A stretch of DNA of 64,000 nucleotides from Candidatus Levybacteria bacterium CG2_30_37_29. GTDB lineage: Bacteria > Patescibacteriota > Microgenomatia > Levybacterales > GWA1-39-11. Positions 13,663-63,369 of this stretch are shown here, piece after piece (position 1 is the stretch's first letter; every line of letters begins with the position of its first letter). A program made the position numbers and the translations under genes. The notes under the pieces were generated by a model. It was not told where the DNA came from. It did not search any database and saw only the letters and a program-made list of their open reading frames with translations. The stretch is from the NCBI GenBank assembly GCA_001873215.1, contig MNYS01000009.1:67654-131653 (forward strand), written 5' to 3'.

Positions 13663-13777
13663 GTAAATCCACCTCCTTTCACTATTTATACTATAACATT
13701 TTATAGGAAAATTATCGAATTACGATAGAGTGTGTCGATATATTATTATGTTTGCGAGTTAAACACGAGGAATAGTT

Positions 13778-14298: not shown

Positions 14299-14393
14299 AT
14301 TGTGATTATACCAAATGAGCTACTGTTTTATTTTTTTCCACCCTACAACTAAAGGAAGCGCGAAGGTCAAAGCAAGATGGCTTACAAAAGAAG

Positions 14394-14645
14394 ATGGGAA
14401 AGCTTCAGATTGCCGATGAGGAATACTATATAAGCTCAGAATACTTACTAAACCTTGCTAAAAGAGCGTCAGAATTATTTGAATGTTCTGAACCGATTGA
14501 AAAAAGGCAACTTTTGAAGTTTACACTTCAGAACTTACGGGTTGATGGCAGTTTAGTGCGATATGACGAGCTAAAACCATTTGACACTATCCGTCTTTAT
14601 GCTTCTCGTCAAGCTTGGCTCCCCCGTGAGGATTTCCGCCAGTAG
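14394..14645 (+). pseudogene. orphan 83-aa ORF, possibly a C-terminal remnant of a recombinase/integrase-like gene next to a tRNA
   Basis: MGKLQIADEEYYISSEYLLNLAKRASELFE... has no N-terminal catalytic region. It lies immediately upstream of tRNA-Asn, a typical integration locus. The domain assignment is weak. Confidence 0.2.
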
Positions 14646-14685
14646 GCGGATAAACTCCCCTAAAGTTTGCGCTTTAAAGACTAAG

Positions 14686-14757
14686 CTCCGCGGGTAGGAT
14701 TCGAACCTACGACCAGTCGCTTAACAGGCGAACGCTCTACCACTGAGCTACCGCGGA
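14686..14757 (-). tRNA. tRNA-Asn (GTT)
   Basis: Manual fold of the reverse complement: acceptor TCCGCGG/CCGCGGA, D arm GCTCAGTGGTAGAGC, anticodon loop CTGTTAA, T arm GGTTCGAATCC. Confidence 0.8.
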
Positions 14758-14869
14758 GTTTAGCCCTCAATAATATGTTTTCTTACAAACGCTATTCCCA
14801 ATTTGGAATTCAGAACTAGTGAGATATTTTAACTTTTTTGAGGCAAGTTTACAAGATGGGGCTGAAAAT

Positions 14870-15883: not shown

Positions 15884-15937
15884 ATAAAGATAGGAAAGAA
15901 TTATAGCACTTAGAAGGATTAAACAACAGCGATTTTT

Positions 15938-17035: not shown

Positions 17036-17095
17036 ACTTGTATATTGTACCGTATTTGAGGCTTGCTGGCAAGCCTATATAATAATTGCTAATAT

Positions 17096-18853: not shown

Positions 18854-18968
18854 AAGTTAGGTAATAGGTATTAGTTAATAGGTAATAGTTTGATTCTTGA
18901 AGTATTATACATCACCCCACAAAACCTGAATACTTGATACTTTCTACATAATACTTAATACTAGAATA

Positions 18969-38171: not shown

Positions 38172-39221
38172 ATGCTTACATCGGAAGCAAAAATATTATA
38201 TCATATTGATATTATAATTTCTGAATATTTATCATTTCTAGCAAACATATTAAGTGCAATACCTTTGAGGATTGTTGATTATGTAGTGATTTTTACAGGA
38301 ATATTCTTTATTTTTGAAGAAGCTTCTCTTGGTTTTGTTTCATCTTTTTCTCAGCTTATTGCAACAATAGGAGCATTTTTTATTAGCCTTTTTGCTTATT
38401 CTTTTGTGTCCGGGATATTAATATCTAAATTATCTTTACCAAAGGGTTTTTCTGATGCTATAGCTTTCCTTTCCCTTGCTGTATTAATCTATGTGATTAT
38501 TACGACTTTAGCATTTGTTATCAACAAAAAAATCGGCAAAATACATCTCTTACCAAAAGTAAATATTATTGGTGGAATAATTTGTGGAAGCCTTTCTTAC
38601 TTTTTTATATCCGCATGCATTATTGCTATTCTTTTATCTTTCCCCGTAAGTCAAGTTGTAAAAGATTCTATCAGCAATTCATTAATCGGAGGATTTCTTG
38701 TTTCTCGTACGCAAACAATTGAAAGAAGTATAAAAGTTGTTTTTGGTGGCGCAATTGATGAGACAATTAACTTTTTAACAATAAAGCCCGGTTCAAGTGA
38801 TACGGTCAGCCTTAACTTTAAAACAAAAAATTTTAAAATAGACGTTTTTTCAGAAAACAAAATGCTTGAGATGTTAAATGAATTTAGAACAAAAAATGGC
38901 CTTGAATCGTTGAGTAAAGACGATACACTTACTAATGCGGCAACAGTTCATGCAAAAGACATGTTGATAAATGGGTATTTTTCTCACTACTCTCTTGAGG
39001 GATATTCACCTTTTGATAGGCTTGAAGCGCTTCGCATACAGTATTCTTCGGCAGGAGAAAATTTAGCATTTGCGCCGGACGTACAAATTGCAATGGATGG
39101 GCTTGAAAAAAGTCCGGGGCACCGCGAAAATATGCTTTCTTCCAAGTTTAAAAAAATAGGCATAGCAGTTTTGGATGCCGGGATGTTCGGAAAGATATTT
39201 GTCCAAGAATTTACCGATTAG
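38172..39221 (+). CDS. CvpA-family membrane domain fused to a CAP (SCP/PR-1/YkwD-like) domain
   Basis: 349 aa. N-terminal 4-TM CvpA-like block. C-terminal LNEFRTKNGL...GHYSH-like...AGENLAF...GHRENML CAP motifs. Confidence 0.55.
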   Translation: MLTSEAKILYHIDIIISEYLSFLANILSAIPLRIVDYVVIFTGIFFIFEEASLGFVSSFSQLIATIGAFFISLFAYSFVSGILISKLSLPKGFSDAIAFLSLAVLIYVIITTLAFVINKKIGKIHLLPKVNIIGGIICGSLSYFFISACIIAILLSFPVSQVVKDSISNSLIGGFLVSRTQTIERSIKVVFGGAIDETINFLTIKPGSSDTVSLNFKTKNFKIDVFSENKMLEMLNEFRTKNGLESLSKDDTLTNAATVHAKDMLINGYFSHYSLEGYSPFDRLEALRIQYSSAGENLAFAPDVQIAMDGLEKSPGHRENMLSSKFKKIGIAVLDAGMFGKIFVQEFTD

Positions 39222-46915: not shown

Positions 46916-47644
46916 ATGGAGAATATATTTTTTGAAAAGATTAACAATAAAAAGATTTTTTGTTATTTATCAGAACCCGAGCCATCTCTCAAAAAGATAG
47001 TAATCATGAGTCATGGATTTAGAGGAACCTCCGCTGGTCCTGCAAGGCAGTTTGTAGATTTCCAAAGAATTTTAAACAAAGAAGGTTTTTCTGTTTTACG
47101 TTTTGATCAACCTAATAGCGGCAATTCAGACGGAGACTTTTTGGATGTTTCTTATGCTGAGTGGGTAGATACAACCGTATATTTTGCCAAAAAATATTTA
47201 GATTCTGGCTATAAAGTTGCTTTGATGGGTCAGAGTATGGGAGCCGCTGTAAGCATAGTTGCGACTGAAAGACCAGAACTTAAAAACAAAATTCCTTGTA
47301 TTCTTCTTTGGGTACCGGGTGTAAATGATGGGGATTTTAAAGGAGAGGATGATGAAGTTTTTGAAGAGGCCGCTCAGAAATATAAGGGAATATTTTGGAA
47401 AGAAGCAAGGCAATTAGATACTTTTAAATGTTTGAAGGAATATACAGGTGGAATACATCTTGTTTACGGAGAGAAGGATGTATTTGTAAGTGCTGAGCTA
47501 CGTGCACGCGTGATAGAAATAGTTAAAGGGAAAAATCAACCCTATATGATTTTAAAAGGGCAAGATCATAGTCCTTGGGAATACGATTTAGTACAAGAAG
47601 TTTACAAACAAGAACTCGCAAAGTTAAAAGAATATCTACCCTAA
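46916..47644 (+). CDS. alpha/beta-fold hydrolase (serine hydrolase)
   Basis: 242 aa. Nucleophile elbow GQSMG. HG oxyanion motif (SHGFRG). Confidence 0.6.
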   Translation: MENIFFEKINNKKIFCYLSEPEPSLKKIVIMSHGFRGTSAGPARQFVDFQRILNKEGFSVLRFDQPNSGNSDGDFLDVSYAEWVDTTVYFAKKYLDSGYKVALMGQSMGAAVSIVATERPELKNKIPCILLWVPGVNDGDFKGEDDEVFEEAAQKYKGIFWKEARQLDTFKCLKEYTGGIHLVYGEKDVFVSAELRARVIEIVKGKNQPYMILKGQDHSPWEYDLVQEVYKQELAKLKEYLP

Positions 47645-49207
47645 ATCTTCTCTTTTTGAATGAAGGAAGAAAAACCACTGGTCAAAAAAGGACACAATTC
47701 CTTTGAATGGCGTTTCGATAACAAAATCAAGAATAAAAAGAAATATATTAATTTGAGAAATGCCTTCCGTAAGATATCTTCCGACACGGGCAATTGGCAT
47801 AAAGAAAAAATCGATGATTGGGGATAAAATGTTTTGTTTGTCTTCAACAGTATATAATTTTGCAGTTTGATTAATTCTGTATGCAAGAAAAGAAACAATT
47901 GCCAAAAAGAAAACAAAAATTATTTGAGAAACAAAAGTAAAATTAAGACGCGTCAGTACATAAATTACCAGACCAAAACTTAAAATAAATGTTGCAAACC
48001 AAGAAAAATTAAAAACGCTTGTCAGGAAAGGTTGATTGTTTTGGGGAGTTTTGCGAAGAATTATATTCCGCCCTATTTTTGGATTTGGGTCAAAAAGCAA
48101 TGTTTGAATACGCGAAAAAATTCTTTCCGAATTTTCCTTCCCCGGAGTCCGAATGAATAAACCAACAGCAACCATAAGAAAAGAAGGAATTATAATATTC
48201 AGAGATATACTGCCCCACATTATCCGTCCGTAAAAAAGATTTTCATATGTTCCTTCAATGGCAAATGCGACAAATACTTTTGAAAGCAGGACAAAAATAA
48301 AACTTCTTATTACTGCTCTTCTTACTTTTGCGGAAATACCGTTGTAGTGTTTTTGGCAAGTTTTAAAAATACTATTTTTAAATTCTTCATCATTTTTCAG
48401 GAGATCATAGATGTTTTCTTTTTGTATCCGAAGGATATCTTCAAAAATCAAAAAAGGTGGAATTTGCCTTTTGACATAAGTAAAAATTTTATGCCGCAAG
48501 GGGTAATTAAGTTGTGTTTCAATTTCCGTGTATCCTTGCCAAAAATTTTGGGTAACAGTTGGAAGTGACTCATCAGTCAGTTTTCCAAAATACTGTACAA
48601 AAAGTGAATACCTTAATAATGCAATATCGTTTTTTGCATAAGCCTTTTTTATTGAAATATATACTTGGGCGTCGCGGACAACTTGTGTGTCATCGGTAAT
48701 TGTAATATTATTTTTTATCAAATGGTATATATAATTTACCATTGTTTCTTTTCCCTGATTTAAATTAAGAATGTCTTCAAGATGGGAAGACATAAGCTGA
48801 AACATCCAGGTGGTCATAACAGCCTCTTTAATTTTATGTTGTTTTACAACTTGGTTTTTAAGACTAAGGTAAAGATTTATTGTTTTTGCAACATCAGTTA
48901 TTGTCTTTTCCTCAATTGATCCATCAGGGAAATACCTTGCCCATATTAGTTCTCGGATAAGGGGTGTGGCAACTTTCTCCCCATTCCCGCTTGAGATAAG
49001 TCTCCGTTTTAATATCCGCTCAATTGCGGCGCGCAAAATTACTTCTTCATCCCTATACTCTATTGCATTTCGAAGCTTTTCATACCACGCAGCAATTTCT
49101 GAAACAATTGTATTTACCGTCATTCCTTTTTCAGAATTAAAGACAGTTTTTTTGCAAAATTCCTTTACCAAAAATTCAGAATAATGATTTAATTTTTTCT
49201 CTTCCAT
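47636..49207 (-). CDS. hypothetical protein with C-terminal multi-TM region
   Basis: 523 aa. N-terminal soluble domain of about 300 aa, then 4-5 TM helices. No recognised motifs. Confidence 0.3.
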   Translation of the reverse strand: MEEKKLNHYSEFLVKEFCKKTVFNSEKGMTVNTIVSEIAAWYEKLRNAIEYRDEEVILRAAIERILKRRLISSGNGEKVATPLIRELIWARYFPDGSIEEKTITDVAKTINLYLSLKNQVVKQHKIKEAVMTTWMFQLMSSHLEDILNLNQGKETMVNYIYHLIKNNITITDDTQVVRDAQVYISIKKAYAKNDIALLRYSLFVQYFGKLTDESLPTVTQNFWQGYTEIETQLNYPLRHKIFTYVKRQIPPFLIFEDILRIQKENIYDLLKNDEEFKNSIFKTCQKHYNGISAKVRRAVIRSFIFVLLSKVFVAFAIEGTYENLFYGRIMWGSISLNIIIPSFLMVAVGLFIRTPGKENSERIFSRIQTLLFDPNPKIGRNIILRKTPQNNQPFLTSVFNFSWFATFILSFGLVIYVLTRLNFTFVSQIIFVFFLAIVSFLAYRINQTAKLYTVEDKQNILSPIIDFFFMPIARVGRYLTEGISQINIFLFILDFVIETPFKGIVSFFDQWFFFLHSKREDLG

Positions 49208-52672: not shown

Positions 52673-53488
52673 CTAAACAACATATTCACAGTTTGATTTT
52701 AATCCTTCTATACAGCCTTTCATAGTTAATAATCTACTTAAACTTTCCTTGACGTGTATTCTCAAAACGCCCTTGTAAGTGTTTTTATTAACATACTGTT
52801 TTTTTAATTGCGATTTTTGATAAAAAGTCTTTGTAAATTGAGCAAGGGGAATATTTGTGGTTTTTGACCAAAACTTTTTGATTAATGGCTCGCGCCCGAT
52901 ATGAGAAATATTCAAACTTAAACGTGGAGTTAGGTCTGATGTTTTAACTCCCAACATATAAAGCCAAGAAATATAAAATTTAACCATTTGCGGATCAGAA
53001 TTGCAAAATCCTAAGCGGTGTTCGTGCTTATTTTTAAAACCTTCTGCCCAATAAAGCGCTACGCCCGCAATGAATAGTTCCCTTTTAGTCAGTTTTCCAA
53101 TCTCGCTTTTTCCATGTTTTAGTAATTTTTGTTCTTTATGTGCTCTATTTTTCTTCTCTTTTGCCTGAGCGAACTTTCTTCCTTTTTGTAAAGCAAGCGC
53201 TGAACGCTTTTTCAGTTTATTTATGTTTTCTTCCGAAAGGGAAATATCTGTGATCCAACCTCTTAGCGTGGTTTTGGGAACAGTAAGCGCAACGACGATG
53301 TCATTAAGGGAAGCCCCGTTTATTCTTAACCTTCTTGCCTCATCCTTAATATGTGAATTATACTTCACAATTTTTAGTATAAATTTCTCTCCGCACCAAG
53401 TCAAGAAGATTTTATAGGTATCGCTGTGCGGTTGATAATTACATTTATTTTTGCTAATATAGGTATGCGGGGTAGTGTAAAGCTGCAC
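52673..53488 (-). CDS. putative homing-endonuclease-like protein (N-terminal HTH + LAGLIDADG-like motif), antisense to and overlapping an intron-containing tRNA gene
   Basis: 271 aa (GTG start in the ORF track; the true start may be an internal GTG/TTG). HTH region INGASLNDIVVALTVPKTTLRGWI. LAGLIDADG-like ELFIAGVALYWAEGF motif. The family assignment is tentative. Confidence 0.35.
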   Translation of the reverse strand: MQLYTTPHTYISKNKCNYQPHSDTYKIFLTWCGEKFILKIVKYNSHIKDEARRLRINGASLNDIVVALTVPKTTLRGWITDISLSEENINKLKKRSALALQKGRKFAQAKEKKNRAHKEQKLLKHGKSEIGKLTKRELFIAGVALYWAEGFKNKHEHRLGFCNSDPQMVKFYISWLYMLGVKTSDLTPRLSLNISHIGREPLIKKFWSKTTNIPLAQFTKTFYQKSQLKKQYVNKNTYKGVLRIHVKESLSRLLTMKGCIEGLKSNCEYVV

Positions 53489-53723
53489 ACGAGGCTCAAA
53501 ATGGGCTCCCTGATTTTATTTCAGGGTTAATTCAGCTATATCGGTGGAATCCTGCTAAGGGCTATACCGAGGTAACCACGTTTAGTTTATATAAATATGG
53601 ACACCGTAGAGACTATACGCTGAAGTCCGATAAAAATCGGGCAAGATATAGTCCGACACTCCAAGTAATTGGAGCAACAGTATGCATAATCTTGTAGACA
53701 AGGTGCGATTCCTTGCCCCGCAA
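53466..53723 (+). tRNA. tRNA(CAU) (Met or Ile2-type) interrupted by a group I intron; exons 53466-53496 and 53685-53723
   Basis: Joining the exons rebuilds the anticodon loop CUCAUAA (anticodon CAU). Acceptor 5' TGCGGGG pairs with 3' CCCCGCA plus discriminator A. T arm CAAGG-TGCGATT-CCTTG. Caveats: the D loop lacks GG and T-loop position 55 is G, so it may be atypical or partly degenerate. Confidence 0.45.
53497..53684 (+). mobile_element. group I intron (small, Azoarcus-like IC3-type core) in the anticodon loop of tRNA(CAU)
   Basis: P1 pairs exon GGCU|CA with IGS UGGGCU, including the conserved exon-U.G wobble at the 5' splice site. P2 CCCTGA-TTTTATT-TCAGGG. P3 TTCAGC/GCTGAA. The R element GUAGAGACUAUACGC and the S element AAGAUAUAGUCCGAC form P7 (GACUAU/AUAGUC). 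P8 UCCGAUAAAAAUCGGG. P9 CUCCAA-GUAA-UUGGAG with a GNRA loop. Terminal omega-G at 53684. A P10 CAU/AUG pairing is possible. Confidence 0.6.
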
Positions 53724-53821
53724 CACAGTAGGAATAGATACATATAACTTCCTACAGCTTCACTAGTCAGTTATACATTCTTCATTATTTTAAACATAAC
53801 TTTTTCTGGTATTATAAGGAT

Positions 53822-55216
53822 GTGGAAAAAATAAAACCTTTACTTCTCTCTATTGTTGCAAACACACGTATTATTCGAATTGGAATCATTGTTTGGGTTT
53901 TTGCTCTGATTATTTTGGCGCTTTTTGTCTTTACCAGAACTAAAGAGACAAAACCAACTTCTTTTGCTCCAAAGCCTACTCAGACAAAAACAAATTTTCA
54001 AACTATTCCGCCTATAACATATTCTCAGCCGGAGACAATTTCCCAAGCAAAAAAACAACAAATATTTACGCTTTCAGGGGCAGCTGATGATATCCCAACA
54101 CTTGATTCCGAAGAGCAAGCATTTCTTCCCCTAATCAACGCTTTTAGGGCTGAAATTGGAGCTCCCGCATTAAAAGTTTCGGTTAATCTTACAAAGGCTT
54201 CGCAATGGATGGCACGCGATCTTGCGCAAAGAGGTATCCTTTCACACACGGATTCTTTAGGACGCACTCCGCAAGAAAGGGTTGCTTTTTTTGGATACTC
54301 ATATGTGCCTCTAGGTGAAAATGCAGCATGGGCAGGAGGAAGCGCGCAGGCTGTTTTTGACGGATGGAAAACCGGGTGTGATGATTTTGGAAGCGGATGT
54401 ACATACACTCACCGAGAGCAAATGAAAAGTCCAGGAATGAGCGCCATAGGGATTGGCAGAGCTCAAGGTTCTACCGGCAACTGGTTTTGGGTGACTGATT
54501 TTGGCGCTGTTCTTGACCAAGAACTTCCGCAAGTCACCGCAACACCAACAACTACCCCTACAAGCCCTACTGCTACCCCGACTCCTACATCAGAACCAAC
54601 CCAAATGCCAACGCCTACAGTAACTCCCGGCGGTCCAACAGAGACTCCAACCCCGACCGGAAATCCGACAGCAACTCCCACTCTAACGCCTGGCGGAACA
54701 GGAATAAAGATTACAATAAGTCTTCCTGGAATTGGCGGTACTGGTCAAGGAATAAATTCTAATCCTGTTCATAAAACAAGAGATGCAAATCTAAAACTTA
54801 TAGATGTACAAAATAACGAAGTAAAAAGTGTGAGCGGAAAAGTTGATTGGGATTCTGTAAATTATAATTATTCAGGCGTAATGGATTTGGGCACTGGAGT
54901 TACAAGCGGAAAGTACATAGTTAAAATAAGAGTAGCAAATATGCTTTGGAAACAAATACCGGGAATTGCTACGGTAACTTCCGGAAGTACAGCAAATACA
55001 ACGCTACCTGTAGAGCTTGTCGGTGGAGATACTGATAATGATAATCAGCTTACGTTGCAAGATTACAATACATTTATATACGATATTTTAAATTGCTATC
55101 TTACCGGTGGTAAAATTTGCGACGTTTTAGCAGTTGACTTAAATGATGACGGAAAGCTTGACGAAATAGATCTAAGTCTTCTCTATTCAGGATTTGCAAA
55201 AAGAAAAGGAGATTAA
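53822..55216 (+). CDS. secreted/anchored CAP (SCP/PR-1) domain protein with Pro/Thr-rich linker, beta-sandwich module and C-terminal dockerin-like Ca-binding repeat
   Basis: 464 aa. N-terminal signal anchor. CAP motifs (GENAAW, CTYTHREQM). PT linker TPTTTPTSPTATPTPTSEPTQMPTPTVTPG. C-terminus DLNDDGKLDEIDLSLLYSGFAKRKGD. Confidence 0.55.
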   Translation: MEKIKPLLLSIVANTRIIRIGIIVWVFALIILALFVFTRTKETKPTSFAPKPTQTKTNFQTIPPITYSQPETISQAKKQQIFTLSGAADDIPTLDSEEQAFLPLINAFRAEIGAPALKVSVNLTKASQWMARDLAQRGILSHTDSLGRTPQERVAFFGYSYVPLGENAAWAGGSAQAVFDGWKTGCDDFGSGCTYTHREQMKSPGMSAIGIGRAQGSTGNWFWVTDFGAVLDQELPQVTATPTTTPTSPTATPTPTSEPTQMPTPTVTPGGPTETPTPTGNPTATPTLTPGGTGIKITISLPGIGGTGQGINSNPVHKTRDANLKLIDVQNNEVKSVSGKVDWDSVNYNYSGVMDLGTGVTSGKYIVKIRVANMLWKQIPGIATVTSGSTANTTLPVELVGGDTDNDNQLTLQDYNTFIYDILNCYLTGGKICDVLAVDLNDDGKLDEIDLSLLYSGFAKRKGD

Positions 55217-55263
55217 GGGTAAAGATTGTTGCAATAAATAATTTAGTCTAGAATAATAGTAAA

Positions 55264-57333
55264 GTGAATTTTAATAATAGTGTAAAAAATTTTCTACTAT
55301 CTTCTTCCAAAAAAAGGCTTGCAAGTATTTTTTTGGGACTTGTTTTGGTTCTTTCAATTCCAATCACTATTTTACTTCTTGGACAGCAACAGGATTTAAG
55401 GCAACGAGCAAGTTCAGGTGAAGGGGGTTTGGATAATAAGAATATTCCAAAAGCAACCGGTTGGAAGACATATTCAGATTTATATCAAGCCAAACAAATA
55501 AAACACTTCACGGATATTTTGGAGTTAAGTATAAATTACGACGATAAATTGACTCCACCGCTTTCTGTCGAAAAGATAATAAAAAAGAATGGTTATATAC
55601 CTACTACTTCTTTAGAAGATAAGGATTATAGTCTAGAGATAATTGATAAGAATAAAAATATTTTATATAAACTTCCTTTTTCGGTGCAAAAAGAAATACC
55701 GGCGGGTGAGCCTCTTCCAGGGCAAGAACATAATAATGCAGTACCGGTTTTATTTCATTCTGTAAAATTTATTATTGTCGTGCCATGGATAGATAAAGCT
55801 ACAGAAATAAAAATTACTGATTCTGCCGGAGCAGTAATTTTAGTAAATACTTTAAAAAACATAGAATCAGTCAATAATCAACCATCTTTTCATTCTTTGG
55901 ATTCGAATGAAAAAATACAAACTAATAAAAATAATCTCTTGAATTATTTCTACTTAGTAACACAGACTTCTTTTGCTCAGACACAAACAAAAAAATTAGA
56001 CATTGTATTTATCGGTGATAAATACGCCGATCTTTCAATTTTTCACTCTGATGTGAACCGTCTTTCAGCAAATCTTCTAACGTTTGAACCATATAAAAGT
56101 CGTTCTTCCAATGTGCAGTTTTCATATGTAGACAATACGACTGATTTGGGGTGTGCGTTTCAAAATAATGATCCGGCAACAAGATTAATTTTATGTGATA
56201 CAAGTAAAGCTACACAAATAGTAAATAACGCGGTAGTACCGTGGGATAAGATTTTTATCATTGTTAATACTCCCGTTTATGGAGGAAGCGGAGGAGATAT
56301 AGGTGTAGGATTTAATGGAGCAGGTGGAGATTATTATTCTTATGCCCCCAATCTTTTTGTGCATGAATTCGCACATTCATTCGCAATTCTTGCTGACGAG
56401 TATGTTAACAATTACAATTTTTCTGATCAAACAAATTGTTATTCCGGTATTCCTCCAAATCCCAATTGGCAAGGAGTTGTCGATGCCTCAAGCTACTTTA
56501 TAGGATGTGACATGTCCACCTGGTATAGATCAAGCGAGACAAGCATTATGAAAGATATCGGTATTTCTTATTTCAATCCCATTTCTCAAAAATATATCAA
56601 CGAAAAGATTGATTTTTATACGACGATTCCGCCTACTCCAACACCTACAAATACCCCTACGCCCACGAATACGCCTACATCTACTCCTCCTGCTACAACA
56701 GCTACGCCGACCGTTACCAGTACTCCAACACCGAGTTCTACGCCTGTGCCAACGGGTCAAACAACCCCGACTACTACACCTGTTCCATCTTCTACTGCTA
56801 CGCCCACTGTAAAACCTATAGAAACCGGAATTAAATTCACCGTCAGCCTTCCTGGAATTGTAGGTACGGGCAATGGAGGAAATCCTAATCCTGTTCATGC
56901 TTTCAGAAGTGCTGAAGTAAAAGTATTTAATGACCAAAATAATGAAGTAAAAACAGCAACAGGAATTTTAGATTTTGATTCCACAACATTTACTTTCAAG
57001 GGTGCAATTCTTATCGAGGGTCTTATAGCCGATTCATATATTGTAAAAATACGGGTTGAGAATTCATTGTGGAAAAGAATTCCGGGAATTGTAAATATTA
57101 CAAGCGGTGTTGTTGCCAATACTCCTGCTGTAGAATTGGTAACAGGAGATATTCCTGATCGCGATAATGAGCTCAATTTGGCAGACTACAATATCATCAT
57201 TGACTGTATTAACAGCCGTGGCAACTGCAATGAGAGCTTAAAGCGCTATGCTGATCTAAATGATGATGGAAAAGTTGACGAAGTTGATCTAAGCATTCTT
57301 TATGCAGGATTTTCGAATAGAAAAGGAGACTAG
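55264..57333 (+). CDS. secreted peptidase M64 (IgA-peptidase-like zinc metalloprotease) with Pro/Thr-rich linker, beta-sandwich module and C-terminal dockerin-like repeat
   Basis: 689 aa. Signal anchor. M64 signature HEFAHSFAILADEY (HExxH...DEY). PT linker PTPTPTNTPTPTNTPTSTPPATTATPTVTSTPTPSSTPVPTGQTTPTTTPVP. C-terminus DLNDDGKVDEVDLSILYAGFSNRKGD. Confidence 0.6.
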   Translation: MNFNNSVKNFLLSSSKKRLASIFLGLVLVLSIPITILLLGQQQDLRQRASSGEGGLDNKNIPKATGWKTYSDLYQAKQIKHFTDILELSINYDDKLTPPLSVEKIIKKNGYIPTTSLEDKDYSLEIIDKNKNILYKLPFSVQKEIPAGEPLPGQEHNNAVPVLFHSVKFIIVVPWIDKATEIKITDSAGAVILVNTLKNIESVNNQPSFHSLDSNEKIQTNKNNLLNYFYLVTQTSFAQTQTKKLDIVFIGDKYADLSIFHSDVNRLSANLLTFEPYKSRSSNVQFSYVDNTTDLGCAFQNNDPATRLILCDTSKATQIVNNAVVPWDKIFIIVNTPVYGGSGGDIGVGFNGAGGDYYSYAPNLFVHEFAHSFAILADEYVNNYNFSDQTNCYSGIPPNPNWQGVVDASSYFIGCDMSTWYRSSETSIMKDIGISYFNPISQKYINEKIDFYTTIPPTPTPTNTPTPTNTPTSTPPATTATPTVTSTPTPSSTPVPTGQTTPTTTPVPSSTATPTVKPIETGIKFTVSLPGIVGTGNGGNPNPVHAFRSAEVKVFNDQNNEVKTATGILDFDSTTFTFKGAILIEGLIADSYIVKIRVENSLWKRIPGIVNITSGVVANTPAVELVTGDIPDRDNELNLADYNIIIDCINSRGNCNESLKRYADLNDDGKVDEVDLSILYAGFSNRKGD

Positions 57334-57450
57334 CACTCGCTGTTTAAGAGGGATTCACTCTTTAATTATTGAGATATTTATTTGCCGGTCTATCGCATAA
57401 TTGGAGCGTGAAAATCTCTTTTCTTTAAGAATGCTTGGCCAGTTTTATTT

Positions 57451-59076
57451 TTATTCTGCGAAAACAATTGCTTCGCTTGCGTCAAAGTACCTGATTGTAT
57501 GAACTACTTTTCTGATTGGAGAGATTTTAGATTCATAAGGTCCAAGAATATACAGCGCATTTTTATTTTGCTTTTTTTTTGACCAGTCTATTTTTCCAAA
57601 CTCGAATTTATCAAATGCTTGTTTGTCTGAATTTTTTGTCCCACCAGCCGCAAGGTAAAGCTTTGGATCGTATCGTAGGTAAAAAAGAAAGAAGATATAT
57701 GGTTGTTCGAGTTGGTTTGAAACATAAACATTCTTATATTTTGATTTATTTTGCTCTACAAAATTTACGGCGTGTTCGTAACCAAACTGCCAGAATCGAG
57801 AAGATTCAAGATTCATATGGGTAAAATAAAGCTGATAGTATTGAATGAAAGAAAATATTACAACTGCAAGAAAAATTGTTATTACAACGACTTGTTTTAC
57901 CATGGAAAATCTTCTCAGAAAAACATAGGCTGTTTCTATTCCCAACGCAACCGCTATTTGTAATGATGGCAACCATATAAGAGTTCTTACTGCGTGGGGC
58001 ACTTCCGAGGTAAATGCTGCGGGAATAGGAGCAAGTAAAAACCAGAGGAAAAAAACTTGTCTTGCTTTTTTGCTTGAGAAGAAAATAGAAATAATACCAA
58101 GCAGCATAAATGATAATTCCCATATGTACAACAGTCCGGTTGAAGGGGCATGATGACGATCGTTATCTCCAGTTATAAACATCCATCTCAGAGAAAAGTG
58201 AGATAGGTATCCATGCGCTATTTCAATAAGCCCCGCTGGAATTGGGGAAGCAAAAAGAGAGTATTGCACGGAAGATTTTTTTATAATGCTTTCTTTTTGT
58301 GATTTTTCTTGTTGAATATTAAAAATATTGGTTGCAGAATATCGTGCCGTAATTTTTTGGCTTTGGCCCTGTGTAAAAAGGGCTAAAAATGGTATTAGAA
58401 AGAACATGCCAACAATAATTGAAATTAGAAGATATTTTTTCTGCTTAAACAAATTTTTATAAAAAACAATGCTTAATCCCAAAAGAAATAATGGTACAAA
58501 TAAACGGGGGCTATGGTATGCATTTATAGATAATCCATAAAATATAGCCGAGGCACTAAGAAAAATTGGCTTTCTTAGACCGAGCAAAAAGAAATAGAGA
58601 CCCCAAATGCAAAGAGTTAACGCAATATTTGCTTCGAATGCTACGCGGGAAAATTGAATATGCCACGGAGAAATTGCAAAAAGCCCTGTTGCCAACAAAC
58701 TTATATAGTTAATTCTCTTGGAAGTACTATTCTGTAAATTAAGCAATTGCCGGGTTAAAAAAAATGTTCCCATGACTGCCATTATTCCCATTAGGGCTGA
58801 GGGAAGACGCACCGAAAAAGCATTCAAGTCAAATATATAGATTGCTGGAATTGCAAGATATGCATACAGTGCGGGTTTATAATCGTCAAAAGACGTAAGT
58901 ATTACTGGTAAAAAATTTCCGTACTCATCCCGTTCTGTAAGTAATATAGAATATGCATTATACCCCAGTGCAGCTTCGTCCCAGTCGGGACTTATCGGCA
59001 CCCCGCCCAAATGATATAGACGAAGAAATGAGGCAATACCAACAATAATTACTAAAAGAAATATTATTCGTTTCAT
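57451..59076 (-). CDS. GT-C family membrane glycosyltransferase (PMT/ArnT-like)
   Basis: 541 aa. More than 10 TM helices. First-loop DE motif (ISPDWDEAALGYNAYS). C-terminal soluble domain. Confidence 0.55.
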   Translation of the reverse strand: MKRIIFLLVIIVGIASFLRLYHLGGVPISPDWDEAALGYNAYSILLTERDEYGNFLPVILTSFDDYKPALYAYLAIPAIYIFDLNAFSVRLPSALMGIMAVMGTFFLTRQLLNLQNSTSKRINYISLLATGLFAISPWHIQFSRVAFEANIALTLCIWGLYFFLLGLRKPIFLSASAIFYGLSINAYHSPRLFVPLFLLGLSIVFYKNLFKQKKYLLISIIVGMFFLIPFLALFTQGQSQKITARYSATNIFNIQQEKSQKESIIKKSSVQYSLFASPIPAGLIEIAHGYLSHFSLRWMFITGDNDRHHAPSTGLLYIWELSFMLLGIISIFFSSKKARQVFFLWFLLAPIPAAFTSEVPHAVRTLIWLPSLQIAVALGIETAYVFLRRFSMVKQVVVITIFLAVVIFSFIQYYQLYFTHMNLESSRFWQFGYEHAVNFVEQNKSKYKNVYVSNQLEQPYIFFLFYLRYDPKLYLAAGGTKNSDKQAFDKFEFGKIDWSKKKQNKNALYILGPYESKISPIRKVVHTIRYFDASEAIVFAE

Positions 59077-60698
59077 TCTTTAGGTGTCAGAAAAACGCTT
59101 ATTTGGAAATTTTTGTCAGGTGCGCTACTTAAAAATGCGGCAAGGAAATATTTAGGAACTGTTATAAGAGGTTGAATATAGACAGTTGAAAGTTTGTATT
59201 TTTTTGGAGGCTCATTTAAAAAAACATAACTGTCAAAAGTAGTTGTGTTGTTTTGGTCAATATACTTTTTAGCAAGATTTTCTCTTTTTGTGAGAAATAT
59301 CCAGTAAAGAGAAATGTCTTGGCCGTACGTTGCGTCTGTTACGATAATTTTTTGTTGCGGCTCCAATTTTTTATCAACAAACTCAAAAGCTTTTTGATAA
59401 TCGGTGTAATAATCTGGCACTGTGATCCCAGGATTAGTAAAAAAGAAGTAATTGAAACGCCCCATAAAATAAGCGGATACAATAATAACTCCTATTAAAA
59501 ATGCTTGTCTAAATCTATAGGGGAATCCTTCCCAGGCATAAAAAAATCCATAAGTTTCAATTGTTACAACTGGTACTAGTATCAATACTATGCGTATAGC
59601 ATCGGGTTGGCTATTTTGAATAGATTGAGGCACCACTATTGATGCGATAAAGATTATTAATAGACCTAAAATCTTTCTATTATTTTTAAATAAAAAAATA
59701 CTGCCTGCAATAAGAAATATCAATTCAAGCGGATTAAGGAGCCCAGCGTATTGAGAAATGTATCCAGTATTATAGCCCCATCTGATAAAAATGCTTTCAG
59801 GCTCAAGATAGTTGGTGATATTTTTAAGATAAAGTTTTGCATCTTCGATGGACGAATCGTTGAGTACTTTGGACTGTAGTGTATTACCGGCTTTTTCTAT
59901 CCTGTTACTTGCTTTTTGTATATTAAATGTGAAATTTTCAGAATTTACGCGATCGATTTGGATTTGATAAGTGTAAACGTGTGGAAGAATTGGAATGAGA
60001 AGAAAAGTTGATAAAAGCAGCGATGTTGTTAAACGTAAAGCGGAGTGTTTTAAGCGAGTAAAAAAAATAATTAATATGCAAATAACAACTGCTGTTGATG
60101 GAATGAAGAAAAGATAATCAGAGTAGATTGCCACTACAAATGGTAAGGGCCAGAAAAATACCAACCTTTTGTATTTTGTAATTTTTAGACTGATAAATAA
60201 CCCTAACAAAAAAAAGAAGAGTCCCAAATTTACACCTGTATCTATTCTTGATACCTGAATATACCAAGGAGAAAAAGCAAAAAAGAGTGTAGAGACAAGT
60301 GGAAAAAGATATCTTTTTTTTGAAGGTTTGGTATTTTTGTAGATTAGAGTATAAGCTTGCCTTACAACGAAATAAAACAATATGATCATTGCGGTTCCTG
60401 CAAGAACAGACGGAAACCTAACTCCAAAAGGAGTAAGACCAAATACTTTTATGAAGGGGGTGGTAAATAGTATTGACAGGGGGGCAATTAAGTGGGTATC
60501 TATAAAACCAAAGCTATGGGAAAAAAGTGAAAAAGTTTCATTTATTTTTGAGTCGTTAAGAACTTGTGATGCAAGTCCGATTTTTAACTCTTTTTGCAAC
60601 AATACTGGGGGTATTTGCGAAAGACTGGCGAGACGAAACCACAACGAAGAGAGGAGAACTAAAAGAAGTATCACAACACGCATTGTGGTAAAAAGCAT
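59073..60698 (-). CDS. GT-C family membrane glycosyltransferase paralog (divergent first-loop motif)
   Basis: 541 aa, the same length and architecture as the neighbour. The first loop has FGFIDTH instead of a canonical DE. Confidence 0.45.
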   Translation of the reverse strand: MLFTTMRVVILLLVLLSSLWFRLASLSQIPPVLLQKELKIGLASQVLNDSKINETFSLFSHSFGFIDTHLIAPLSILFTTPFIKVFGLTPFGVRFPSVLAGTAMIILFYFVVRQAYTLIYKNTKPSKKRYLFPLVSTLFFAFSPWYIQVSRIDTGVNLGLFFFLLGLFISLKITKYKRLVFFWPLPFVVAIYSDYLFFIPSTAVVICILIIFFTRLKHSALRLTTSLLLSTFLLIPILPHVYTYQIQIDRVNSENFTFNIQKASNRIEKAGNTLQSKVLNDSSIEDAKLYLKNITNYLEPESIFIRWGYNTGYISQYAGLLNPLELIFLIAGSIFLFKNNRKILGLLIIFIASIVVPQSIQNSQPDAIRIVLILVPVVTIETYGFFYAWEGFPYRFRQAFLIGVIIVSAYFMGRFNYFFFTNPGITVPDYYTDYQKAFEFVDKKLEPQQKIIVTDATYGQDISLYWIFLTKRENLAKKYIDQNNTTTFDSYVFLNEPPKKYKLSTVYIQPLITVPKYFLAAFLSSAPDKNFQISVFLTPKE

Positions 60699-60861
60699 AT
60701 TATAAATGGATTATAACATGTCACTAAGTAAGAACATGGAAAGTTTTTAGATCTTCTTTTGGATTCAAAATAACGCAAAAATTCTTAACACCATTAATAC
60801 TACGGATGGGTCTCCAGCTTTTAATGTCGTACAGCTTCAAAAAACTGAGTGAGCATGTTTA

Positions 60862-61239
60862 TTAGAAAAAAAGGTCCCACCATTTTTTCCAATTAGGACG
60901 CAAATCTTGTTTTATCACATGATTTGTAGTAGCAGGTTGTGAGGCAAAAATAATATGTTCTCCTGTTCTTACGAGTCCAAGCTTTCTGCGGGCTTGAGCC
61001 TCAATAAATTCATTTGTTTGGGCGTATTTAAGCTGTTCTTCAAGAAATATTTTTCTTTTTTGCTGTTCTTTTAATTGTGAGGTTAATTGTCCTGTAACGC
61101 TTTCTGTTGTTAGCTTTTTATATATTGAAAAAGTCAAGTTTTTTACAAAAATTAAAAGTATAAAAATTATAAGAATTAGTACCAGTTTTTTCATTAGTTG
61201 TTGACAAACCGCATCCAGCTTGATATTATAGGACGACAA
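60862..61239 (-). CDS. ftsB: septum formation initiator FtsB/DivIC-family protein
   Basis: 125 aa. N-terminal TM and coiled coil. EFIEAQARRKLGLVRTGEHII matches the DivIC/FtsB family. Confidence 0.55.
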   Translation of the reverse strand: MSSYNIKLDAVCQQLMKKLVLILIIFILLIFVKNLTFSIYKKLTTESVTGQLTSQLKEQQKRKIFLEEQLKYAQTNEFIEAQARRKLGLVRTGEHIIFASQPATTNHVIKQDLRPNWKKWWDLFF

Positions 61240-61241
61240 TT

Positions 61242-62108
61242 ATGCCAGACACATTACCCATTAAGGATGCCCACTTAAAATTTCAAGACTTTTTGAAATC
61301 AAAAAACAAAGCATCCGCTACAATTTTAGCATACGGAAAAGATATAAGCCAATTAATAACTTTTCTTGAGGAGCTTGAAAAAAAGCACGTCAGCGAAGTG
61401 ACAAGCGGAGATATACAGGCATTTATGGCTCAATTAAGCACAAAAGGGTATACTCCTAAATCTATTTCCAGAAAGCTTAATTCAACGCGTACTTTCTATC
61501 GTTATTTAAAGGTAAACGAGTATATTACTGATGACCCGTCGCTTGTTGTTCAGCACCCGAAGTATGAGCTTAATCCTCCGCGTATTCTTTCACCTCTTGA
61601 ATATAGAGCTCTTCGTGATTCAGCTTCGTCTGACCCGCGAATTTACGCTGTAATTGAAGTTTTGCTTCAAACAGGAATTAGAATCGGTGAGCTTGCAAAT
61701 TTAAGAATGGAAGAGGTAAAGGATAATTCTCTTTTTATTCGTGTTTATGAAGGACACGCAGCTCGGGAAGTGCCATTAAATAAAAGAGCAAAAGACGCGC
61801 TTAAGCGCTATTTTGATTCGCGTCCAAAAACAGAAAATGATCATGTATTTATTACAAAAACTGGAAAGCCTTTTCTTGTAAGAAACATAAGAGACGCAAT
61901 TGAACGTTACTTTAAAAAAGCAGGTGTTGAAAATGCAAAAATAAATGATCTCCGTCATACTTTTGTTGCCCATCATCTAAGGCAAGGAGTTTCAATTGTT
62001 TTTCTCTCAAAGATTCTGGGACACAAACGTCTTTCTTCAACAGAGCGATATCTACAGTACGTAAAAGACACCAAAAACGGCGAAAGCACAACTCTTCTGG
62101 AACTCTAA
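61242..62108 (+). CDS. xerC: tyrosine recombinase XerC/XerD family
   Basis: 288 aa. The catalytic R...H..R..Y tetrad context is present: GIRIGELANL, LRHTFVAHHLRQG, RLSSTERYL. Confidence 0.85.
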   Translation: MPDTLPIKDAHLKFQDFLKSKNKASATILAYGKDISQLITFLEELEKKHVSEVTSGDIQAFMAQLSTKGYTPKSISRKLNSTRTFYRYLKVNEYITDDPSLVVQHPKYELNPPRILSPLEYRALRDSASSDPRIYAVIEVLLQTGIRIGELANLRMEEVKDNSLFIRVYEGHAAREVPLNKRAKDALKRYFDSRPKTENDHVFITKTGKPFLVRNIRDAIERYFKKAGVENAKINDLRHTFVAHHLRQGVSIVFLSKILGHKRLSSTERYLQYVKDTKNGESTTLLEL

Positions 62109-62765: not shown

Positions 62766-62837
62766 GCTCTCGTAGTTCAACGGATAGAATGGGGGATTGC
62801 GGATCCCCTGATGCGGGTTCGATTCCCACCGGGAGCG
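62766..62837 (+). tRNA. tRNA-Arg (GCG)
   Basis: Manual fold: acceptor GCTCTCG/CGGGAGC (one G.U pair), anticodon loop TTGCGGA, T arm GCGGG-TTCGATT-CCCAC (one C.A mismatch). Paralog of the tRNA at 63258. Confidence 0.55.
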
Positions 62838-62895
62838 CAGCGTAAGAAATCAAAGATTTCAACGCTGCTGGAACGTAAAAATTTCAGAGGAAATT

Positions 62896-63162
62896 TTGTA
62901 CGTTCTGCCCATTATGTATTACGTATACATATTAAAAAGCGAAAAAGATAAAAGTTTATATACTGGTTATACAAAGGACTTAAAGAAAAGATACAAGGAG
63001 CATAATAACGGTTTGTCAAAAGCAACAAAATCAAGACGTCCATATCAATTAATATTTTATGAAGCATTTGTAAACATGAAAGATGCGAAGAAACGCGAAG
63101 AGTATTTAAAAAGCGGGTGGGGTTTAAGAAGTATTAAAAAGATGCTTGTTAATACCTTGTGA
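62896..63162 (+). CDS. GIY-YIG nuclease family small protein (second copy)
   Basis: 88 aa. YVYILKSEKDKSLYTGYTKDLKKRYKEHN GIY-YIG motif. Confidence 0.75.
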   Translation: MYVLPIMYYVYILKSEKDKSLYTGYTKDLKKRYKEHNNGLSKATKSRRPYQLIFYEAFVNMKDAKKREEYLKSGWGLRSIKKMLVNTL

Positions 63163-63167
63163 AATGT

Positions 63168-63252
63168 GGAGGGTTAGCCAAGTGGTTTACGGCGCAAGTT
63201 TCGAAAACTTGTTCCCTTTTGGGAAACACAGGTTCGAATCCTGTACCCTCCG
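63168..63252 (+). tRNA. tRNA-Ser (CGA)
   Basis: Acceptor GGAGGGT/ACCCTCC. Anticodon stem-loop CAAGT-TTCGAAA-ACTTG. Long variable arm TTCCCTTTTGGGAAAC. T arm ACAGG-TTCGAAT-CCTGT. Confidence 0.75.
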
Positions 63253-63257
63253 CAGAT

Positions 63258-63329
63258 GCCCTTGTAGTTCAATGGATAGAATGGGGGATTCCGGATCCCT
63301 TGATGTGGGTTCGATTCCCACCAAGGGCG
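63258..63329 (+). tRNA. tRNA-Arg (CCG)
   Basis: Acceptor GCCCTTG/CAAGGGC. Anticodon loop TTCCGGA. T arm GTGGG-TTCGATT-CCCAC. Confidence 0.75.
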
Positions 63330-63369
63330 CAGTATTGACACAGAGAATAAATCAACATAAAATGCTCCA

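Follow-up and report, generated by a model that had tools for sequence, protein, structure and literature searches.

Two convergent gene pairs at the locus

We analysed a window of 64,000 nt from an ultra-small groundwater bacterium of the Microgenomates group of Patescibacteria, and studied the region at window positions 53822–60698. The four ORFs that a preliminary description had placed in this region are all present in the ORF listing, and they form two convergent gene pairs: 53822–57333 on the plus strand encodes a CAP-domain protein and an M64-like metallopeptidase, and 57451–60698 on the minus strand encodes two paralogous GT-C proteins, named A and B here. Because the two pairs are convergent, the CAP/M64 genes and the GT-C genes are not one operon. 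The same gene layout is found on contigs from many samples of this organism.

The first gene (53822–55216, plus strand) encodes a putative surface protein of 464 aa with a single N-terminal hydrophobic helix in the hydropathy profile (aa 6–42). Its CAP (SCP/YkwD-like) domain (aa 104–227, nt 54131–54502) matches positions 3–117 of the 117 in Pfam PF00188 at 55.3 bits (cut-off 21.1; E = 1.5e-14), which places it in the CAP/SCP superfamily as had been proposed, and it matches the NCBIfam YkwD-family domain at 7e-12, under the cut-off of that model. A Pro/Thr linker of 57 aa follows (aa 236–292, nt 54527–54697; 16 P, 22 T and 2 S, 70% P+T+S), and the protein ends with an X-module-like beta-sandwich (aa 293–400) and a dockerin (aa 401–464) with the C-terminus RKGD-COOH (nt 54698–55213). 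The second gene (55264–57333, plus strand) encodes an M64-like metallopeptidase of 689 aa, and in its N-terminal leader (aa 20–49, nt 55321–55410) a single hydrophobic helix (hydropathy segment aa 17–42) precedes a conserved IPIT...QQQDLRQRA motif that recurs in the family described below. The catalytic core (aa 241–390, nt 55984–56433) scores 51.6 bits with PF09471 (cut-off 26; E = 9.7e-14), a match that covers only positions 9–165 of the 302 in the model. This core also matches the M64-like structure PDB 3p1v at 5.9e-10, with HEFAHSFAILADEY (approximately aa 367–380, nt 56362–56403) on the zinc motif; in the HExxH...DEY motif, VHEFAHSFAILADEY lines up with VHEFGHSFGGLADEY of 3p1v. Thus score and zinc motif assign the protein, at the level of sequence, to peptidase family M64, as the preliminary description had it; the hint of host-directed activity that it drew from this protease is speculative. 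Downstream of the core are a Pro/Thr linker of 69 aa (aa 453–521, nt 56620–56826; 19 P, 29 T and 6 S, 78% P+T+S) and an X-module-like beta-sandwich (aa 522–627) with a two-repeat dockerin (aa 628–689), which has a Cys...Cys loop and the same RKGD-COOH end (nt 56827–57330). With one N-terminal hydrophobic helix each, both proteins are predicted to be exported or membrane-anchored, in line with the earlier claim.

The shared C-terminal module is an X-module–dockerin dyad

The C-terminal modules of the CAP and M64 proteins, already described as shared, have 54% identity across 184 aa (E = 2e-53), and their likeness is far beyond chance level. Pfam Dockerin_1 (PF00404) supports the dockerin assignment in the M64 protein (28.0 bits, cut-off 22.9) but not in the CAP copy taken alone (12.8 bits); the CAP-protein module scores 202.6 bits (E = 7.8e-62) with a profile of the whole module family (A5 HMM). 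Moreover, the PDB sequence matches of the module are the X-module and dockerin of CipA, and in Foldseek its AF2 model (pLDDT 91.4, pTM 0.85) found X-module–dockerin (XDoc) chains as all six best matches. In this model the Ig-like X-module is directly N-terminal to the dockerin and packs on it as a rigid unit, and both the fold and the inter-domain geometry agree with those of cohesin-binding XDoc dyads. The family alignment shows the two Ca-binding F-hand repeats of a dockerin, GD-x-[DN]-x-[DN]N...DYN and DLNDDGK-x-D-x-x-D, with invariant D/N positions, and it also shows an R-x-G-[DE] sequence at the extreme C-terminus and a Cys...Cys loop between the repeats, which are invariant or nearly so. 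Hence both proteins carry a genuine dockerin-containing end, which matches the cellulosomal X-module–type II dockerin dyad in sequence and structure.

The XDoc family comprises 1,861 cluster representatives, 1,358 of them with E <= 1e-10, and the profile match nearly always stops at the final residue of the protein. XDoc genes form tandem arrays in relatives, and 74 of 144 full-length members have the IPIT...QQQDLRQRA leader, as do many XDoc genes at related loci. In a Pfam scan of 86 members, Dockerin_1 was present in 47, and the cargo domains were Cohesin (the commonest, in 19), SdrD_B, VWA, CAP, M64, S8 and CarboxypepD_reg; no glycoside hydrolase was among these 86 proteins. The searchable literature yielded no description of this tag family. 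Its fold, domain identities, size and cargo range are established by the present analysis, and we consider it probable that XDoc is a widespread, standard C-terminal tag for surface display in this lineage.

The closest known counterpart is the type II XDoc of cellulosomes (C. thermocellum CipA and A. cellulolyticus ScaA; PDB 2b59, 3kcp, 5g5d, 4u3s and 4wi0), in which an Ig-like beta-sandwich likewise stands immediately before a two-repeat Ca-binding dockerin and packs together with it, and the dyad likewise follows a Pro/Thr linker at the extreme C-terminus; cohesin genes are co-located in relatives of the present organism as well. However, sequence identity to the cellulosomal dyads is only 18–22%, and the Cys...Cys loop and invariant R-x-G-[DE] end set this tag apart from them. 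The family also has neither the multi-cohesin scaffoldin nor the CAZyme cargo of a cellulosome, its cargo being non-cellulolytic (CAP, M64, S8, VWA, adhesin-like repeats and single cohesins), and in place of an SLH-anchored scaffoldin, a small protein anchored by an N-terminal TM segment is presumed to be the receptor. Non-cellulosomal cohesin and dockerin modules are reportedly scattered across bacteria and archaea, a survey attributed to Peer and colleagues in 2009. The present tag resembles such dockerins in that the organism lacks a cellulosome, the carriers are proteases and putative adhesins, and protein–protein docking at the cell surface is presumed; it differs in having a defined X+Doc dyad as a uniform C-terminal tag over at least 1,358 protein clusters, a shared N-terminal leader motif in many members, and cohesin genes beside tagged genes in relatives. 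A dockerin-domain protein of the envelope is essential in a Saccharibacterium (PMC10633639).

Candidate cohesin partners in relatives

The preliminary description had also implied a cohesin-like partner, and this holds in the XDoc family and beside XDoc genes in relatives but not in the sequence at hand: an HMM search found no cohesin in the window or in 10 kb on either side, approximately 84 kb in total and a small fraction of this genome. In relatives, 7 of 11 Patescibacteria-type loci have cohesin genes in close proximity to XDoc genes, with small TM-anchored cohesin ORFs directly downstream of the XDoc genes (L004, L005, L008, L009, L010, L014 and L015); four of six such small ORFs scored above the Pfam Cohesin cut-off. 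Moreover, a custom cohesin HMM matched 58 of the top 150 XDoc-module proteins. By analogy with the cellulosomal type II dyads, we infer that XDoc binds cohesin. Each exported cargo protein would then be closed by a Pro/Thr stretch and a rigid XDoc dyad, and the Ca2+-loaded dockerin would plug into a cohesin that, judging from relatives, may be supplied by the small N-terminally membrane-anchored proteins encoded right after XDoc arrays, or else by other XDoc-tagged proteins that contain a cohesin domain. In this way the cell surface would retain the cargo, either directly or as links of a chain, and the Pro/Thr stretch would serve as an extended spacer.

Alternatively, the tag might be a Ca2+-stabilised module for wall or glycan binding, for self-association or for sorting through R-x-G-[DE]-COOH, with no cohesin bound and the GT-C proteins unrelated to it. 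The lack of a cohesin in the approximately 84 kb would fit this explanation, as would the presence of cohesins on only a part of the family by either count (Pfam or custom HMM), and the (near-)invariant C-terminus and Cys...Cys loop are, to our knowledge, dispensable for canonical cohesin binding. Nevertheless, cohesin genes stand beside XDoc genes at most of the Patescibacteria-type loci, Cohesin is the commonest cargo domain, the fold and inter-domain geometry are those of cohesin-binding dyads, and the cohesin search covered little of the genome. We therefore regard this explanation as unlikely, and docking to cohesin as the reading to retain.

An intact and a degenerate GT-C paralog

Paralog A (57451–59076, minus strand, 541 aa) is a putative intact lipid-phosphate-sugar-dependent glycosyltransferase, as judged from its homologs, invariant residues and AF2 fold. 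Paralog B (59073–60698, minus strand, 541 aa) is the upstream gene of the pair and its stop codon overlaps the start of A by 4 nt; the two proteins are 23% identical (E = 8e-13). Paralog A carries a DE motif (D33-E34, nt 58975–58980), the sequence GDNDRHHAP at aa 303–311 and a C-terminal soluble alpha/beta domain, and W32-D33-E34 is invariant in 24 of its homologs. There are >3,000 homologs in Patescibacteria, which are annotated as GT39/PMT_2; the JGI annotations include ‘ArnT-like’, and some list PF02366. The AF2 model of A (pLDDT 82.9) matched the GT-C folds of STT3, AglB, PglB, ArnT, Pmt4 and ALG9/12 with probability 1.0, and this polytopic fold and the acidic motif in the first external loop place A in the GT-C superfamily; the scores are equal (TM ∼0.5) for protein-modifying (STT3, PglB, Pmt4) and for lipid- or glycan-modifying (ArnT, ALG9/12) enzymes. 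Paralog B has Lys at the position of the catalytic Asp (K36-E37, nt 60588–60593). Its orthologs are few (35–39% identity), and throughout the B clade the Asp position is occupied by K, R, H or N, and D33, E148, GDNDRHH and PHAxRT are absent in all members. The degeneration of B is thus plain from its sequence, and because B lacks the catalytic Asp and the other invariant motifs, it is probably a non-catalytic partner subunit of A. The pair had been described as tandem PMT-like GT-C transferases; two homologs of 541 aa are indeed present, but A falls below the Pfam cut-off for PMT_2 (23.7 versus 26.1 bits) and has no other match at E <= 1, and B has no Pfam match at that threshold and has lost the catalytic motifs.

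Two paralogous GT-C proteins also stand together in the yeast Pmt1–Pmt2 heterodimer, and this analogy suggests that A and B may form a heteromeric complex. Both yeast subunits keep the DE motif, unlike the present pair, in which B has K/R/H/N for Asp and three further invariant motifs are missing. The DE motif of Pmt1 is D77/E78 (PMC8698208).

An ArnT-like function, in which A/B would decorate a lipid-linked component of the envelope (such as a lipoteichoic-acid-like or glycolipid anchor) with a sugar, cationic or neutral, rather than extend a polysaccharide, agrees with several properties of A. ArnT (5ezm) is its sole significant PDB profile match, at E = 0.0096 and covering TM2–TM6 alone, and gave the best size-normalised TM-score (0.55 under both normalisations). 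Like ArnT (GT83) and related lipid or glycan GT-C enzymes of the PMT_2 family, A has a PMT_2-type N-terminal region (23.7 bits, under the cut-off), a similar size and a C-terminal soluble, extracytoplasmic domain; homologs are called ‘ArnT-like’ by JGI, and at L024 the pair adjoins an alkaline-phosphatase/LtaS-like membrane protein, as read from the sequence by eye with no Pfam match. However, A remains under the Pfam cut-off, the fold scores do not separate GT-C subfamilies, and a Pfam scan of the window ORFs that reach at least 120 aa gave no arnA/B/C/D-like gene, so that the arn genomic company of ArnT is missing within the window. Patescibacteria are generally regarded as lacking lipid A, and its absence is expected here. 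We consider an ArnT-like function very unlikely.

Genomic company of the B–A pair

The genomic company of the homologs points elsewhere. The B–A pair with its 4-nt overlap is also present in L003, L023, L024 and the P0122 contig, and the two genes are adjacent with no such overlap in L001/L002, L022 and L027; hence the B–A pair is a separate conserved unit. More distant homologs of A belong to arrays in which GT-C-type genes number five to seven or more, and in L025, L026 and L027 these arrays contain PMT_2, PMT, YfhO, PTPS_related, GT87 and MptA_B genes together with a GT2 of ∼250 aa and a GT4 or flippase. Such arrays look like envelope-glycan machinery and resemble the mycobacterial LM/LAM and arabinogalactan loci (PimE/GT87, MptA/MptB, Emb, Aft) and YfhO-type teichoic-acid glycosylation. 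The window likewise encodes Wzy_C, a Polysacc_synt flippase, a GT4–GT2 fusion and two GH130 enzymes (Pfam), although such genes are scattered in this organism, the B–A pair alone remaining together. Because of this company of the homologs, the acceptor of A is most likely a cell-envelope glycopolymer. In the B–A pair, two GT-C membrane proteins would be translationally coupled, with the catalytic apparatus in A only, and the pair may move sugar from a polyprenyl-phosphate donor to an envelope glycopolymer outside the membrane, not specifically to the CAP and M64 proteins.

Two independent units or one glycosylation system

Pro/Thr linkers are classic targets of O-glycosylation in actinobacteria and cellulosomes, and the preliminary description had proposed that the linkers of the neighbouring proteins are glycosylated by a system made up of the GT-C pair and of genes 50 kb distant. 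A/B would then be a Pmt-like O-glycosyltransferase that acts on Ser/Thr of these linkers during export, with a polyprenyl-phosphate sugar as its donor, supplied by the GT2 domain at 3138–5618. The adjacency and its constancy across many samples are consistent with this proposal, as are the 70–78% P/T/S content of the linkers, the GT-C fold and invariant first-loop DE motif of A, with which the enzyme could in principle modify proteins, and the GT39/PMT_2 annotation of its family. Actinobacterial Pmt (GT39), an O-mannosyltransferase that places mannose on Ser/Thr residues of exported proteins and acts with the dedicated donor synthase Ppm1 (PMC12331936, PMC8698208, PMC5882110), shares with A the GT-C fold and, in loop 1, the catalytic DE motif (PMC8698208), which B lacks; a polyprenyl-phosphate sugar donor is expected for A too, and secreted Pro/Thr-rich proteins are plausible acceptors. 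Bacterial Pmt is built of PMT (PF02366) and PMT_4TMC (PF16192), carries an Rx2Y motif in EL5 and binds proline-rich acceptors, which the mycobacterial enzyme favours, through a WW-like hairpin in EL4 (PMC12331936). In contrast, neither A nor B has the PF02366 and PF16192 architecture; A has the C-terminal soluble domain instead and a catalytically degenerate paralog as its mate, and no Ppm1 gene is adjacent.

The donor synthase had been described as a GtrB/Ppm-like GT2. The GT2 domain is present, and it is the only one in the window, but the 3138–5618 gene is no plain GtrB/Ppm: it encodes an 826-aa GT4–4 TM–GT2–TM fusion. The C-terminal TM segment and the weaker matches of the GT2 domain to DPM synthase (4.8e-11) and ArnC (1e-8) agree with donor synthesis, but its closest structures are polysaccharide synthases (chondroitin synthase, 5e-20). 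The third GT-C enzyme, at 5975–7486, was recovered as described (PMT_2, 33.6 bits); both genes are ∼50 kb from the CAP/M64/GT-C region.

The adjacency itself is conserved in neither direction. No PMT-type GT-C gene was found near the XDoc genes at 14 XDoc loci with flanks of up to 10 kb, a count made with PMT and PMT_2 HMMs only, which YfhO- or GT87-type enzymes would escape; nor is there an XDoc gene near the B–A pair in the five relatives with readable DNA, the sixth B–A contig, P0122, being available as gene calls only. XDoc/GT-C adjacency is thus unique to this organism, and the XDoc unit and the GT-C unit lack a conserved linkage. These results, the convergent orientation, the architecture of A, the degeneration of B and the multi-GT-C arrays of distant relatives all weigh against a linker glycosylation system, which we consider distinctly unlikely. 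Of the earlier interpretation, export and the dockerin module therefore stand, and glycosylation of the linkers by the GT-C pair does not. The findings that the preliminary description had named as grounds for abandoning its proposal, arn genes and absent dockerin support, were both lacking, and thus the O-glycosylation idea is only weakened. In its strongest form, the idea is that A, in complex with the degenerate B, adds O-glycans to the Pro/Thr spacers while XDoc proteins emerge from the membrane; this is quite improbable, but if true it would be the first such system for proteins to be reported from the Candidate Phyla Radiation, and it would couple glycosylation to a minimal cohesin–dockerin display by which these ultra-small cells, which probably depend on a host, are armed with proteases and adhesins. 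It is rather likely that the region consists of two functionally independent units that are neighbours by chance in one organism.

Implications for surface display in Patescibacteria

The prevailing view is that Microgenomates-group Patescibacteria live in attachment to other cells, and the way in which they retain proteins at their surface is poorly understood. The interest of the present region is moderate and lies chiefly in the XDoc tag family; a glycosylation system would have been notable but is unsupported. A smaller point is that envelope glycan synthesis may involve a pseudo-enzyme partner, as the conserved pairing of an intact with a degenerate GT-C protein suggests. Cellulosome-style XDoc–cohesin docking appears to be a general means of surface display in Microgenomates-group Patescibacteria, for proteases and CAP proteins as well as for VWA or adhesin-like proteins and additional cohesins, and small membrane-anchored cohesins would be the receptors. 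As the tag is uniform and recognisable in sequence, it offers a direct listing of surface-exposed proteins in these bacteria and a docking interaction that can be tested.

The C-terminal module of the CAP and M64 proteins

All four open reading frames (ORFs) sit where the preliminary description placed them, and its reading of the first two holds: the product of 53822-55216 (+) matches Pfam CAP (1.5e-14), and that of 55264-57333 (+) matches Peptidase_M64 at 9.7e-14, with its zinc motif HEFAHSFAILADEY aligned with the zinc motif of the solved M64-like peptidase 3p1v. Each protein has a single N-terminal hydrophobic helix, and the Pro/Thr-rich linkers are present as P/T/S linkers of 57 and 69 aa (P+T+S 70% and 78%). 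The two proteins do end in the same module, their C-terminal 184 aa being 54% identical (E = 2e-53), and the dockerin call is borne out by Dockerin_1 above the Pfam cut-off, at 28 bits, in 55264-57333. A second CAP-domain protein (38172-39221, +) is fused at its N terminus to a CvpA (Colicin V production) membrane domain and lacks this C-terminal tag.

In a PDB sequence search, module residues 78-173, from the last part of the beta-sandwich through the dockerin, match the X-module plus type II dockerin of C. thermocellum CipA (E = 0.0016). The top matches in PDB sequences were designed pentatricopeptide-repeat (PPR) proteins, with E down to 1.5e-9, and these were rejected as artefacts because their scores add up many repeats that are individually below threshold (each E-value >60). 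The 178-aa module gave no matches in a word-indexed protein search; the family was gathered by an exhaustive profile HMM search, which returned 1,861 cluster representatives (1,358 with E <= 1e-10), and in which the match almost always reaches the last residue of the protein. The AlphaFold model of the two-domain unit, built with 21 family sequences, has a pLDDT of 91.4 and a pTM of 0.85, and its best six Foldseek matches are all XDoc (X-module plus dockerin) chains, from CipA and A. cellulolyticus ScaA. The CipA match, the extent of the family, the model and the Foldseek matches together show that the shared C-terminal module is an XDoc dyad of type II-like character. Reference genomes encode it at 14 loci, and we found no description of this tag family in the searchable literature.

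The family-invariant positions include the two Ca-loop repeats, the Cys...Cys pair that lies between them and a terminal R-x-G-[DE]-COOH. In the family alignment (A5), which includes the dockerins of the two window proteins (57145-57330 and 55022-55213), the Cys...Cys pair is nearly invariant, and the last residues are always R-x-G-[DE]. At the other end, 74 of 144 full-length XDoc-tagged proteins share a leader in which a hydrophobic helix ends in ...PIT... and is followed by QQQD[IL]RQRA at about residue 45. The M64 protein carries this leader (aa 20-49; 55321-55410) and the CAP protein does not; it also occurs in many XDoc genes of relatives (loci L006, L009, L010, L011 and L014). We know of no described equivalent, and the leader could serve as a signal-peptide or processing motif specific to the lineage.

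The GT-C gene pair

The minus-strand genes had been described as tandem GT-C paralogs of the PMT type. Both encode 541-aa membrane proteins, the upstream gene B (59073-60698) and the downstream gene A (57451-59076), and they are indeed homologous but distant (23% identity, E = 8e-13); as to the PMT assignment, A touches PMT_2 below cut-off and B has no Pfam match at all. The family of A is very large in Patescibacteria, with >3,000 matches labelled GT39 or ArnT-like by their sources, and 24 homologs share the invariant positions W32-D33-E34, E148, G303-D304-x-x-R307-H308-H309 and P360-H361-A362-x-R364. The AlphaFold model of A (pLDDT 82.9) has ~11 transmembrane (TM) helices and a C-terminal soluble alpha/beta domain. 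Its matches to STT3/AglB/PglB, ArnT, Pmt4 and ALG9/12 are of similar quality (TM-score ~0.5), and on fold a protein acceptor was not distinguishable from a lipid or glycan one. Neither A nor B gave a useful match in single-sequence PDB searches, and the only significant PDB profile match of A is ArnT (E = 0.0096). The about-equal fold matches and the lone ArnT match thus place A in the GT-C fold.

B has only a handful of orthologs (35-39% identity), all of which carry K, R, H or N at the position of the catalytic Asp and have lost the E148, GDNDRHH and PHAxRT motifs. The stop codon of B overlaps the start of A by 4 nt, and the same overlap occurs in relatives (L003, L023, L024 and the P0122 contig), while the two genes are adjacent without it in L001/L002, L022 and L027. 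Because a degenerate paralog is kept as an intact ORF and is tightly coupled to the active one, B is best read as a putative non-catalytic partner of A. Literature searches found no description of the A/B pair, and nothing relevant on GT-C enzymes or O-mannosyltransferases in Patescibacteria or on cohesins in Microgenomates; the pair adds to a known enzyme superfamily. An ORF at 47636-49207 (523 aa), suspected as a fourth GT-C, has no similarity to B and no Pfam match.

Are the two gene units linked?

The preliminary description joined the CAP and M64 genes, the B-A pair and two distal genes into one system that would O-glycosylate the Pro/Thr linkers. The two neighbouring units face each other in convergent transcription, with their stop codons separated by 117 nt. 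In a scan of 53400-61300 no terminator was found between the convergent genes, and counts of promoters and terminators were no higher than in shuffled sequence. An HMM that readily picks up varied family members in other sequences found no PMT/PMT_2-type GT-C in the 14 XDoc loci (~171 kb in total); conversely, no XDoc gene is present in the B-A loci with readable DNA. A conserved layout was considered in the closest relative (L024), where two genes are convergent to B-A, and was rejected, these neighbours having no XDoc module and being unrelated to CAP or M64.

Family-A genes of three more distant genomes are embedded in arrays of PMT_2, PMT, YfhO, PTPS_related, GT87 and MptA_B_family genes. 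The GT-C-type genes of these arrays number five to seven or more, and they are accompanied by a ~250-aa GT2 and by either a GT4 (L026) or a flippase (L027). Such a neighbourhood fits extracytoplasmic glycopolymer assembly and not a dedicated protein O-mannosyltransferase. The defining features of bacterial Pmt are the PMT and PMT_4TMC modules and a loop-1 DE motif (PMC12331936, PMC8698208); in comparison, A has the DE motif without the PMT plus PMT_4TMC architecture, and B has neither. The evidence therefore says that the two units are not linked, and the proposed glycosylation system is not supported, having been drawn from an adjacency that is conserved neither among XDoc loci nor among B-A loci. 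PT linkers are glycosylated in actinobacteria and cellulosomes. By analogy those studied here may well be glycosylated too; on the present evidence A/B is no likelier to be the enzyme responsible than any other GT-C in the genome.

As for the distal genes, the proposed GT2 donor synthase does contain a GT2 domain, but within an 826-aa fusion of GT4, four TM helices, GT2 and a further TM helix. This domain, ~50 kb from the flagged genes, best matches polysaccharide synthases (chondroitin synthase, 5e-20), with weaker matches to DPM synthase (4.8e-11) and ArnC (1e-8). The third GT-C was correctly called, 5975-7486 encoding a PMT_2 protein, and is followed by two GH130 (beta-mannoside phosphorylase family) proteins of 621 and 647 aa. 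The glycan-related cluster formed by the GT4-GT2 fusion, the PMT_2 GT-C, a SAM synthetase and the two large GH130 genes (3138-13005) adjoins the replication origin, and hints at mannose-containing envelope glycans.

Genomic setting

The window is ordinary chromosome of a low-GC (~36%) organism in the Microgenomates group of Patescibacteria (CPR). It opens with dnaN/dnaA, and its housekeeping and envelope genes include those for two class A PBPs, Wzy_C, a Polysacc_synt flippase and DUF4012. Homologs of the flagged genes were found in MAGs of Levybacteria/Levyibacteriota, Curtissbacteria, the 'Microgenomates group' and the 'Patescibacteria group', and many metagenome assemblies, at least one labelled groundwater, hold identical contigs. 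On the source contig a type IV secretion-like gene set (11104-21101 of the matching contigs L028/L029) directly flanks dnaN on the left, outside the window; it includes a VirB4/TraG-like ATPase, TraC-like and PrgI-like proteins, three T4SS_pilin genes and an M23 peptidase. After yidD, one 140-kb assembly has a 366-aa minus-strand ORF of the same length as dnaN (L031 17261-18361), and another has ftsH and then a TrwB-like gene (L030 17268-20276); the difference is either a strain-level rearrangement or a contig wrapping around a small replicon.

Upstream of the CAP gene, a tRNA gene (53466-53726, +) has its anticodon loop split by a ~188-nt group I intron (Rfam RF00028, 55.3 bits, 53487-53675), which is flanked by the acceptor-stem halves TGCGGGG and CCCCGCA. 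ARAGORN misses the unspliced gene and, once the intron is removed in silico, recognises a tRNA with anticodon CAU. A 271-aa ORF without Pfam match (52673-53488, -) overlaps the 5' exon on the opposite strand. Near the other end of the window, tRNA genes Arg-GCG, Ser-CGA and Arg-CCG are interleaved with small GIY-YIG endonuclease-like ORFs (62766-63330 and beyond, L018/L030), one at 62896-63162 and two annotated in L018.

Cargo and probable cohesin partners

Among 86 family members scanned with Pfam, the XDoc tag accompanies Cohesin (19), SdrD_B (11), VWA (5), CAP (4), M64 (2) and subtilase (1) domains, among others, and no glycoside hydrolases; a family-specific cohesin HMM matches 58 of the 150 top proteins. 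XDoc genes in Patescibacteria-type loci form tandem arrays of 2-3. Directly downstream of such arrays, in Levyibacteriota and other Patescibacteria MAGs, lies a small ORF of ~200-240 aa in which an N-terminal TM helix ('MSKKTL...') is followed by a short PT spacer and one cohesin domain (L004 1289-2011, L005 695-1354, L008 4361-4960, L009 10581-11240, L010 10526-11158, L014 1508-2131 and L015 1797-2504), and Pfam Cohesin scores above cut-off in four of the six tested. A minimal membrane-anchored docking receptor would be expected to look like this combination of TM helix, PT spacer and cohesin. In the present organism no cohesin was found in the window or within 10 kb past either edge, a search that took in all stop-to-stop window ORFs of at least 50 aa.

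In a Saccharibacterium, a dockerin-domain protein is among the essential envelope genes (PMC10633639). The earlier proposal of docking to a cohesin-like partner appears right, and is sharpened here to a type II-like XDoc tag whose probable partners, in relatives, are the cohesins encoded near XDoc genes. We rate the proposed XDoc display in this organism as a variant of non-cellulosomal cohesin-dockerin display.
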